Shown in pieces: positions 10,601 to 11,623 of a stretch of DNA of 32,000 nt (its first letter is position 1; the number at the start of each line of letters is the position of its first letter). Under the pieces are notes generated by a model. That model saw only the letters and a list, made by a program, of their open reading frames with translations, ran no database searches and was not told the origin of the DNA. Source of the DNA: Candidatus Arthromitus sp. SFB-mouse-Japan (GTDB lineage Bacteria; Bacillota; Clostridia; Clostridiales; Clostridiaceae); NCBI RefSeq assembly GCF_000270205.1, contig NC_015913.1:810001-842000 (forward strand), read 5' to 3'. Made by a program: the position numbers and the translations under genes.

Positions 10601-10640
10601 ACCACACTAGAGAATAAAATCTTTAGTGTGGTTTATTTTT
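10601..10640. terminator. Hairpin terminator at the left end of the island (usable from both strands)
   Basis: ACCACACTA (10601-10609) pairs with TAGTGTGGT (10624-10632). It is followed by TTATTTTT on the + strand and by a T-rich stretch on the - strand after the TIR-like gene stop. Confidence 0.7.
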
Positions 10641-11031
10641 AGTAACCTCTTATTGCGTTAACTATTGAATTGGTATTCCAACCTACAATTTTATCAGCCG
10701 CATTTTTAACTACAATTGAGGTTCTTTCTGAACCCCATGGTTCTATTGCAATTATTCTTTTACCTAACTCTTTTGCAAGCTCAATCTCAATATTTATCCA
10801 CTTACTATATGTAGAATAAACACCAGCCAGTATTAAAACACAACTAGTTGAGGACATCTGCCTTCTAATTGCTTCTTTTAAAGCTACATTTGTTGGAGCA
10901 TTGTGGATAGGGTCATCTTTAGGGACAGAATAATTTCTGTAAGAGAAGTACGGTGCAGCATCGAGTAATTTTACTAATCCATCATACTGATGATGGTATG
11001 TCCATGAATGACTAATAAATATGTTATACAT
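10639..11031 (-). CDS. TIR-like (ThsB/DUF1863-type) domain protein
   Basis: 130-aa single-domain ORF with SD AGGAGG. The N-terminal strand is NIFISHSW. The core VLILAGVYSTYSKWINIEIELA contains S76-x-W78-x3-E82, which is the SxWxxxE context of the catalytic Glu in TIR NADases. Confidence 0.75.
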   Translation of the reverse strand: MYNIFISHSWTYHHQYDGLVKLLDAAPYFSYRNYSVPKDDPIHNAPTNVALKEAIRRQMSSTSCVLILAGVYSTYSKWINIEIELAKELGKRIIAIEPWGSERTSIVVKNAADKIVGWNTNSIVNAIRGY

Positions 11032-11066
11032 TTTATACCTCCTAGATTATATTATAATATATAAAA

Positions 11067-11540
11067 CTATCCTTTAAGTGAACAAATCAAATATTTAAGC
11101 TGAGCAAGAATGCAGGATGAATACAAAAAAATAAAAATCCAAGGCAGAAAAGTTTCTAAATATGTAAAACGCTTATATTTATCTTCCTCATTTATTAGCT
11201 TCCATTCATACTCATGTGGTGATATAGGTAGCATTTTTTCTATTTCATTTATTATCCTATACTTTACTCTATTTAATTCTTTATAACTTTTAATTGTGCT
11301 TTGCCATAATATACTAACTATAATTCCTACTATAGACATAACAATACTTTTATAATCTAATGAAAATGAAAATGAAGTTAATGCAATTATTGCTGCATTT
11401 ATGGCAATATAAATGTTGTTGCTATTTATTCTGCGTTCACTATTGCAATTAGCCATTTCAGCACAGGTTTTCCATTGTTCCAATATATGATCATTAAACT
11501 GGTCTCCATATTCATCTTTCTTAATATTTACTAAGTTCAA
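11067..11540 (-). CDS. Small integral membrane protein (3 predicted TM; SLATT-like candidate effector)
   Basis: 157-aa ORF with a TTG start after GAGGTGG. It has a ~40-aa polar helical N-terminus, a TM hairpin (IYIAINAAIIALTSFSF / IVMSIVGIIVSILWQSTI), a K/E-rich amphipathic linker, and a C-terminal TM (FLPWIFIFLYSSCILAQL). It lies 35 bp upstream of the TIR-like gene on the same strand. Confidence 0.7.
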   Translation of the reverse strand: MNLVNIKKDEYGDQFNDHILEQWKTCAEMANCNSERRINSNNIYIAINAAIIALTSFSFSLDYKSIVMSIVGIIVSILWQSTIKSYKELNRVKYRIINEIEKMLPISPHEYEWKLINEEDKYKRFTYLETFLPWIFIFLYSSCILAQLKYLICSLKG

Positions 11541-11594
11541 CTAACCACCTCTTTTATAACGTAAAGGCTTATTATTTATAATCTAATATATCTA

Positions 11595-11623
11595 ATAATA
11601 CTTCTGTTTTATGTTTGTGACAA
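11595..11623 (-). promoter_or_regulatory. Sigma-A-type promoter of the membrane-protein/TIR cassette
   Basis: On the minus strand, TTGTCA (11623-11618), a 17-nt spacer and TATTAT (11600-11595) lie ~55 nt upstream of the TTG start. Confidence 0.55.

Follow-up and report, generated by a model that had tools for sequence, protein, structure and literature searches.

Within the 32,000-nucleotide stretch of Candidatus Arthromitus sp. SFB-mouse-Japan DNA analysed here (contig NC_015913.1, positions 810,001 to 842,000; hereafter the window), two adjacent genes on the minus strand probably make up a two-gene abortive-infection system of the Thoeris type. The organism is a segmented filamentous bacterium (SFB) of the mouse gut with a genome of 1.62 Mb. 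One of the genes encodes a 130-aa ThsB-like TIR protein, identical to SFBM_0762 (BAK56534.1 / WP_014017931.1), and the other a 157-aa membrane protein with three transmembrane (TM) segments, identical to SFBM_0763 (BAK56535.1 / WP_014017932.1) of the same genome. Yirmiya et al. (bioRxiv, December 2025, 10.64898/2025.12.03.692087) present '3TM' among 29 putative types of Thoeris effector (their Fig. 1C), and on sequence grounds the SFB pair is an instance of this predicted and catalogued 'TIR + 3TM' configuration. The original prediction, an earlier annotation of this stretch, had proposed a TIR plus small membrane-protein module of the Thoeris type, which would be either a new subtype or an undescribed system. 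The module itself is supported by the domains, the synteny and the genomic context, and the idea of an undescribed system has to be given up, as TIR + '3TM' is already among the 29 putative types. The two open reading frames (ORFs), their strand and the gap of 35 bp between them, all read from the sequence, are as the annotation had them (Table 1).

The assignment of the 130-aa protein to TIR-like proteins of the ThsB kind, made at first from its N-terminus and core, was borne out by profile searches and by predicted structure. The protein matched the full Pfam profile ThsB_TIR (PF08937) over residues 5-102 with an E-value of 5.5e-17, and TIR_2 weakly. It also matched eleven PADLOC-DB models, ten of which describe ThsB (best E 4.3e-17) and one the candidate system PDC-M50B; no NCBIfam model was found for either protein of the pair. 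Its sequence matches in the PDB were MTH538, EcThsB and ThsB. The AlphaFold2 (AF2) model, with a predicted local distance difference test score (pLDDT) of 86.8, retrieved MTH538, EcThsB, EcThsB2, ThsB-Tad3 and SARM1 in Foldseek, together with the B. cereus TIR (template modelling score 0.73) and the related nucleoside 2-deoxyribosyltransferase fold. When aligned with the TIRs from Table S1 of Yirmiya et al., W78 and E82 were invariant and S76 nearly so, E82 standing opposite the Glu of the WVRYEI motif in B. cereus ThsB. Across 22 close TIR homologues the stretch YSKWINIEI was fully invariant. Since the protein scores and folds as TIR-like and E82 is conserved among the aligned homologues, the original identification stands, including the Glu that it had singled out. 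Judged by profiles and model, the SFB protein is a ThsB-type TIR with a Glu in the catalytic position, which is one of the features by which Thoeris systems are recognised.

The 157-aa protein was assigned to the curated Pfam family PF24838, '8xMP, octameric membrane protein', with an E-value of 1e-29 and 103.5 bits against a cut-off of 30; its residues 20-147 span positions 1-134 of the 136 in the profile. In UniRef, SFBM_0763 goes by the name 'RipA family octameric membrane protein'. The word 'octameric' belongs to the Pfam/UniRef family name only, our AF2 prediction being monomeric, and the literature gave no origin for '8xMP' or 'octameric membrane protein'. The layout described in the original prediction proved correct. 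A polar head (residues 1-40) is followed by a TM hairpin (~42-83), a K/E-rich linker (84-126, with 10 K/R and 8 D/E) and a third TM segment (~127-150). In the AF2 model (pLDDT 82.5) the helices comprise residues 15-57, 63-103, 110-118 and 127-156, and the first two, of about 40 residues each, run from the cytoplasm into the membrane and back. Across bacterial and archaeal members R37, W79, K93, L104, E112, W113 and E129 are invariant, and K24, N41, Y86, L89, E101, Y122 and P133 are nearly invariant; most of these residues are located on the cytoplasmic helices that adjoin the membrane. The family is large, as an exhaustive search using a hidden Markov model profile built from 32 8xMP sequences counted 3,378 clusters (50% identity) at E <= 1e-3 and 2,081 at E <= 1e-10. 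Two longer members of 293-302 aa (P0256 and P0257) have an N-terminal extension of ~140 residues without any Pfam match. We considered them as possible fusions of a TIR with 8xMP and dropped the idea, as no extra domain could be recognised; the extension is due either to a gene-calling artefact or to an added domain of unknown kind.

The statement that no recognisable motif is present in the membrane protein holds for sensor domains, as the Pfam scan found no SLOG, Macro or other known ligand-sensor domain, but it does not hold for the family, now that PF24838 has been assigned. There was likewise no match to the Macro domain of the type II effector, and the cytoplasmic parts of ~40 and ~43 residues consist of helix only. 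A relationship to SLATT proteins, suggested as a lead at the outset, was rejected at the sequence level. The Pfam models for SLATT, DUF4231 and DUF2270 (PF10028) did not match the protein at E <= 1, and none of the three occurs among the 25 families listed of the 43 matched by 32 aligned relatives at E <= 10. As a further comparator we took a SLATT_1/DUF4231 protein of Staphylococcus chromogenes whose gene adjoins that of a ThsB TIR; when the 8xMP profile was aligned to it by hhalign, the probability was 3.9% and the alignment covered the hydrophobic hairpin alone. One 8xMP homologue carries the label 'SLATT-5', given by its GenBank submitter.

The connection between the SFB pair and the catalogued type was drawn through the TIR. 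Among the rows listed from Table S1 of Yirmiya et al. (10.64898/2025.12.03.692087), 100 TIRs have '3TM' as their 'putative associated effector' and fall into clusters 2734565194 and 2556961318; in the same rows '3TM' is kept separate from 'DUF2270 - Type V', and the string of the SFB TIR does not occur. Aligned to the SFB TIR, the '3TM' TIRs show 61-66% identity, and up to 80% by tblastn. One of them, ga0117810_1000004103, shares 95% identity with the TIR immediately next to the PF24838 gene of locus L032, and another is 80% identical to a Halorubrum TIR that abuts 8xMP. These identities suggest that the '3TM' effector is the PF24838 (8xMP) family, by a link that runs via the TIRs, effector sequences not being part of Table S1. 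The '3TM' type and the SFB pair are alike in the TIR clade, the two-gene operon and the three-TM effector. They differ in that Yirmiya et al. neither assign PF24838 nor give a signal.

The pairing of the two genes turned out to be strongly conserved. A TIR gene directly adjoins the 8xMP gene in 26 of the 29 species-representative genomes that encode an 8xMP relative, and in 23 of those 26 loci the TIR is 52-91% identical to that of SFB. Distant members of the family (30-40% identity), located on plasmids, abut TIR genes as well, and the pairs known from plasmids cross phyla and reach into the archaea (Table 1). They come from cyanobacteria, proteobacteria, C. perfringens and a haloarchaeon and mostly have restriction or toxin genes at their side. 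The pair on the Halorubrum plasmid lies beside another TIR protein and a gene with an adenylate/guanylate cyclase domain. The plasmid pairs are often found amid toxin-antitoxin and partition genes, and a qualitative tally of neighbours elsewhere includes type I, IIG and III restriction, PIN, HEPN, toxin-antitoxin and integrase genes. On metagenome contigs 8xMP and then ThsB_TIR follow immediately on the gene of a BpuSI-like type IIG enzyme or on a type III res gene, and unrelated loci repeatedly have the pair just downstream of a gene for a restriction endonuclease. The pair has both a conserved adjacent effector and a location among defence genes and mobile elements, which are two further marks of Thoeris.

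The conserved adjacency also bears on the view that 8xMP is a housekeeping envelope protein, comparable to Francisella RipA, which interacts with LpxA, and that its TIR neighbour is incidental. The UniRef name points in this direction, orphan 8xMP genes do exist, and the RipA of Francisella tularensis is described as forming homo-oligomers in the inner membrane and as having two cytoplasmic domains, both essential, a description that resembles the head-plus-linker layout of 8xMP. No structure of RipA could be traced. We give this view a very small chance, as a TIR adjoins 8xMP in so large a share of the genomes and does so in bacteria and archaea alike, unlike RipA, which is chromosomal and linked to LpxA and intracellular growth and not to a TIR. 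SFB is moreover Gram-positive and is not known to have a lipid A pathway. Should RipA prove to belong to PF24838, to which it is likened here by name and by the description of its topology, a Thoeris effector would have an orphan relative in Francisella.

A three-gene variant was seen in twelve loci, mostly of Oscillospiraceae and Ruminococcus (L007, L008, L010-L013, L017 (6468-6953), L018-L020, L023 and L025). In these loci a second and unrelated TIR of the TIR_2 type, ~155-161 aa in size, separates the 8xMP gene from the ThsB gene; SFB lacks this TIR. This second TIR is 44-52% identical to the first TIR of an operon found on three plasmids of C. perfringens (NZ_CP065633.1, where it is L037 1501-3814, NZ_CP148663.1 and NZ_CP148594.1), in which genes for a caspase-like Peptidase_C14, a TIR_2, 8xMP and ThsB_TIR follow each other on one strand. 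The operon thus combines two different predicted effectors with two TIRs, and it lies ~2 kb from the beta-2 toxin gene cpb2.

As for the signal, the closest characterised TIR is EcTIR from the type IV Thoeris of E. coli 328, to which the SFB TIR is 61% identical. N7-cADPR, an isomer of cyclic ADP-ribose (cADPR), was purified from EcTIR and solved by nuclear magnetic resonance (Rousset et al., 10.1101/2024.10.24.620036). Type IV Thoeris consists of a TIR and a caspase-like protease that responds to N7-cADPR. It resembles the SFB pair in that EcTIR has the same YSKWI-x-x-EI catalytic context, and the operon of the C. perfringens plasmids brings a caspase-like gene together with 8xMP. It differs in its effector, as a caspase-like gene lies next to the TIR in type IV and a membrane protein takes this place in SFB; Peptidase_C14 was not among the 20 larger neighbouring ORFs of the window that were scanned. 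Because the effector is a membrane protein, killing in SFB would proceed by membrane damage and not by proteolysis. The second type IV TIR, PsTIR, is of a different clade, and TIRs 43-44% identical to it lie directly upstream of 8xMP in two Eubacteriales genomes, as do TIRs 28-36% identical to it on plasmids of Polaromonas, Haematospirillum and Novosphingobium. Yirmiya et al. took the co-occurrence of ThsH and ThsI as a sign of a shared signal (10.64898/2025.12.03.692087), and the caspase-like + 8xMP operon of C. perfringens parallels it. N7-cADPR is favoured because of the identity to EcTIR, the PsTIR-like TIRs that pair with 8xMP and the operon combining 8xMP with a caspase-like gene. We name it as the product of the SFB TIR tentatively, with a likelihood somewhat below even. 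These comparisons of sequence also suggest that 8xMP may be a pore gated by N7-cADPR or by cADPR.

The mechanism that we propose runs as follows. The 130-aa ThsB-like TIR would sense phage infection, as expected from its characterised homologues, and would convert nicotinamide adenine dinucleotide (NAD+) by means of Glu82 into a cyclic ADP-ribose isomer, likeliest N7-cADPR and otherwise canonical cADPR. Residue conservation and the published models of ThsF and ThsH suggest that the signal would bind to the cytoplasmic face of an 8xMP homo-oligomer, where K24, R37, Y86, K93, E101, E112, W113 and Y122, on the helices flanking the membrane, could form the likely pocket. Binding could then open or rearrange the three-TM bundle, by analogy with ThsF, ThsH and the type II effector, and the membrane breach or depolarisation that follows would stop phage replication. 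The original prediction had left it open which partner senses and which kills. The question is less open than that, given that the TIR is 61% identical to a protein known to make an infection-induced signal.

The same annotation had regarded an effector without a dedicated sensor domain as unusual. This could not be upheld, as type V (ThsF, a DUF2270 protein with three TM segments, responding to 3'cADPR) and type VII (ThsH, a SLATT protein, responding to canonical cADPR) have both been validated (10.64898/2025.12.03.692087) and lack such a domain too, so that the sensor-less effector is a known theme. AlphaFold3 models of ThsF and ThsH form rings or filaments with positively charged pockets between the protomers (10.64898/2025.12.03.692087). 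Like 8xMP, these two are small helical TM effectors without a separate sensor domain and are presumed to breach the membrane. No sequence relationship of 8xMP to either was detected, and it has three TM segments where SLATT has two. Type II Thoeris, in which a TIR works with a Macro-TM effector through histidine-ADP-ribose (His-ADPR), is similar in that a TIR signal activates a membrane-pore effector; the SFB effector is different in having no Macro domain, and the SFB TIR is from a different clade. A preprint on a modularity network (10.1101/2025.09.30.679545) contained nothing relevant to the pair.

Several points weigh against this reading as a whole or in part. Regarding the effector, Foldseek with the AF2 monomer of 8xMP against the PDB gave generic helical bundles only (best E 0.65), and the PDB sequence search returned nothing at E <= 10. 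The PADLOC 2023 library is without an effector model, so the locus could not be called there as a complete system. The family is also not exclusively linked to TIRs, since some 8xMP genes have no adjoining TIR: in L009, L015, L016 and a Leptolyngbya plasmid no TIR was present within the fetched DNA, and in Acaryochloris the sole TIR gene is located ~2.6 kb upstream of 8xMP, behind two other genes. None of the 30 operons that Yirmiya et al. put to the test is a '3TM' operon (10.64898/2025.12.03.692087). The product of the SFB TIR is uncertain too, because type VII and VIII TIRs of the same cluster 2734565194, which are 35-41% identical to it, make canonical cADPR. The same authors caution that the TIR of their unverified types may be an effector that depletes NAD+ (10.64898/2025.12.03.692087).

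The last two points each lead to a rival explanation. Under one of them the architecture is unchanged, with the TIR making canonical (N1) cADPR or some other or unknown ADP-ribose derivative and 8xMP tuned to that molecule. The type VII and VIII TIRs are in favour of it, and so are types X and XI, which yield none of the known molecules (10.64898/2025.12.03.692087), so that the diversity of products within TIR clades is real. It has to be set against the N7-cADPR made by the closest characterised TIR and against the partners that 8xMP has, namely PsTIR-like TIRs and a caspase-like gene; we rate a product other than N7-cADPR as possible, if on the unlikely side. Under the other rival the roles are reversed, the TIR being an NAD+-depleting killer and the membrane protein a sensor, anchor or regulator, responding for example to membrane perturbation or DNA injection by a phage. 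TIR NADases do act as effectors in CBASS, Pycsar and prokaryotic Argonaute (pAgo) systems, which agrees with the caution of Yirmiya et al. The SFB TIR, however, is a bare 130-aa domain with a demonstrated signal producer as its close relative, and many loci have two different TIRs with one 8xMP, as in multi-ThsB Thoeris. Moreover, the partner of this TIR clade swaps between caspase-like, CMP-hydrolase, SLATT and 3TM proteins, a pattern that fits a single signal generator whose effectors are exchangeable. Reversed roles therefore seem improbable to us, and the TIR is best regarded as the predicted signal producer and 8xMP as the predicted effector.

A bolder version of the proposal would make 8xMP the first membrane effector of N7-cADPR signalling, that is a homo-oligomeric (octameric) ligand-gated pore that would read the TIR product through a pocket of K24, R37, K93, Y86, W113 and Y122 on its cytoplasmic helices and would have no canonical nucleotide sensor. 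This version is speculative and we consider it doubtful. If 8xMP does read N7-cADPR, caspase-like and 8xMP effectors would be interchangeable outputs of one signal, and orphan members, among them perhaps Francisella RipA, could be relatives that were domesticated or are gated in another way. Validation of the pair would lengthen the list of Thoeris types by one and introduce a new kind of membrane effector gated by a nucleotide. What is new here is the assignment of the anonymous '3TM' effector to PF24838, with its more than 3,000 clusters (50% identity), the breadth of 8xMP including archaea, the two-TIR variant, the caspase + 8xMP operon and the N7-cADPR hypothesis. Current understanding is not overturned, because the architecture had already been predicted.

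The pair lies at one end of a decayed element with an aminotransferase gene (9330..10523) and a permease gene (24585..25793) as its borders, and we considered whether it could be a non-functional passenger of this element or could serve the element, by addiction or exclusion, rather than phage defence. The neighbouring hsdR, hsdM and serine recombinase genes are broken, which would suit a passenger, as would the toxin-antitoxin and partition genes that often surround the plasmid pairs. The two genes of the pair, in turn, are intact, have good ribosome-binding sites and are under strong purifying selection, and the identical protein occurs on 53 contigs. When compared with the pair of locus L001 (91% and 78% identical), the ratio of non-synonymous to synonymous substitution rates (dN/dS) was 0.04 for the TIR and 0.06 for 8xMP, dS being high for the latter. 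Such values next to broken hsdR, hsdM and recombinase genes argue that the function of the pair has been retained, and we allow the passenger explanation only a small chance. SFB, a host-restricted and genome-reduced gut symbiont, keeps an intact TIR-signalling pair under purifying selection amid a decaying restriction-modification system and mobile element. Locus L001 is a 5.3-kb contig (CAZVQX010000028.1) binned as 'uncultured Muribaculaceae', which may be a mis-binned contig of another SFB lineage.

Table 1. Features of the gene pair and its surroundings in the window (window coordinates), and related gene pairs on plasmids
Feature	Position or replicon	Strand	Description
thsB-like gene SFBM_0762	10639..11031	-	130-aa single-domain TIR; predicted phage sensor and signal synthase; putative catalytic Glu82
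Effector gene SFBM_0763	11067..11540	-	157-aa three-TM PF24838 protein; predicted signal-gated membrane-disrupting effector
Intergenic spacer, 35 bp	11032..11066	-	AGGAGG at 11043..11038, 6 nt before the TIR ATG
Effector upstream region, 100 bp	11541..11640	-	Promoter-like motif and ribosome-binding site (motif scan, sequence)
Hairpin between convergent TIR and aminotransferase genes	10599..10634	.	15-bp stem, 5 G-C pairs
Type I hsdR pseudogene	11641..14004	-	5'-truncated, four ORFs, directly upstream of the pair, same strand
TIR-8xMP pair	Synechococcus pIITB6_1		Plasmid
hsdR-TIR-8xMP-PIN order	Polaromonas pH8NP2		Plasmid
TIR-8xMP pair, HEPN gene nearby	Novosphingobium p4		Plasmid
TIR-8xMP pair among toxin-antitoxin genes	Haematospirillum		Plasmid
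TIR-8xMP pair	Haloarchaeon Halorubrum lacusprofundi pHLAC01, L043 2297-3372

Among the expression signals, the ribosome-binding site GAGGTGG (11551..11545) lies 4 nt before the TTG start (11540) of the membrane protein, and the motif scan found a promoter-like TTGTCA (11623..11618) separated by 17 nt from TATTAT (11600..11595) on the minus strand. The stretch is AT-rich, and the 13 promoter-like sites observed in it are no enrichment over the 9.7 +/- 3.0 found in shuffles, so we take TTGTCA-17-TATTAT as a motif match and not as evidence of a promoter. The hairpin downstream of the TIR gene folds with -18.3 kcal/mol (z = -3.2) and is probably a bidirectional terminator. From the claim that the pair has its own promoter, Shine-Dalgarno sequences and terminator, the motifs, the Shine-Dalgarno sequences and the hairpin could be confirmed, but the promoter sites are not above the shuffled background.

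The pair had also been described as part of a defence island beside hsdR. Restriction-modification remnants and an integrative element are indeed present, but the type I system is dead and hsdR is a pseudogene. Its pieces, 13414..14004, 12709..13362, 12398..12700 and 11641..12420, lack the N-terminal part of the protein and carry in succession the Pfam domains SWI2_SNF2 (from profile position 35), T1R_D3-like and, twice, T1RH-like_C. Of hsdM there is a 174-aa N-terminal fragment only (18014..18538), and no hsdS was seen in the window. The hsdR and hsdM remnants are separated by ~4 kb of inserted genes with DUF3801, PDDEXK_2 and DUF6017 ORFs. Between them, at 15845-16162 on the minus strand, there is also a 105-aa fragment of an ADP-ribosyltransferase exotoxin (PF03496, E 2e-12), apparently truncated. 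At 17365-17482, inside the DUF6017 ORF (16927..17928, minus strand), we noticed tandem 23-bp iteron-like repeats in at least 4 copies (TTTGGTCATTTTGACTAAATGCA-like), which may be the replication origin of the decayed element.

Further along, the region 19438-24508 is the remnant of an integrative or satellite-like element. It encodes a 688-aa primase-polymerase/D5 helicase, a 297-aa protein of a capsid family and a serine recombinase that is divided between the ORFs 23339..23695 and 23819..24508. The G+C content of this region is 0.33-0.37 against ~0.28, a rise that is only mild and falls at 19-24 kb. A search for direct repeats flanking the element gave none that were convincing. On the other side of the pair, at 4951-6096 on the minus strand, the window encodes a protein of 381 aa that has the X domain of phosphatidylinositol-specific phospholipase C (E 5e-10) and may be relevant to the interaction of SFB with its host.

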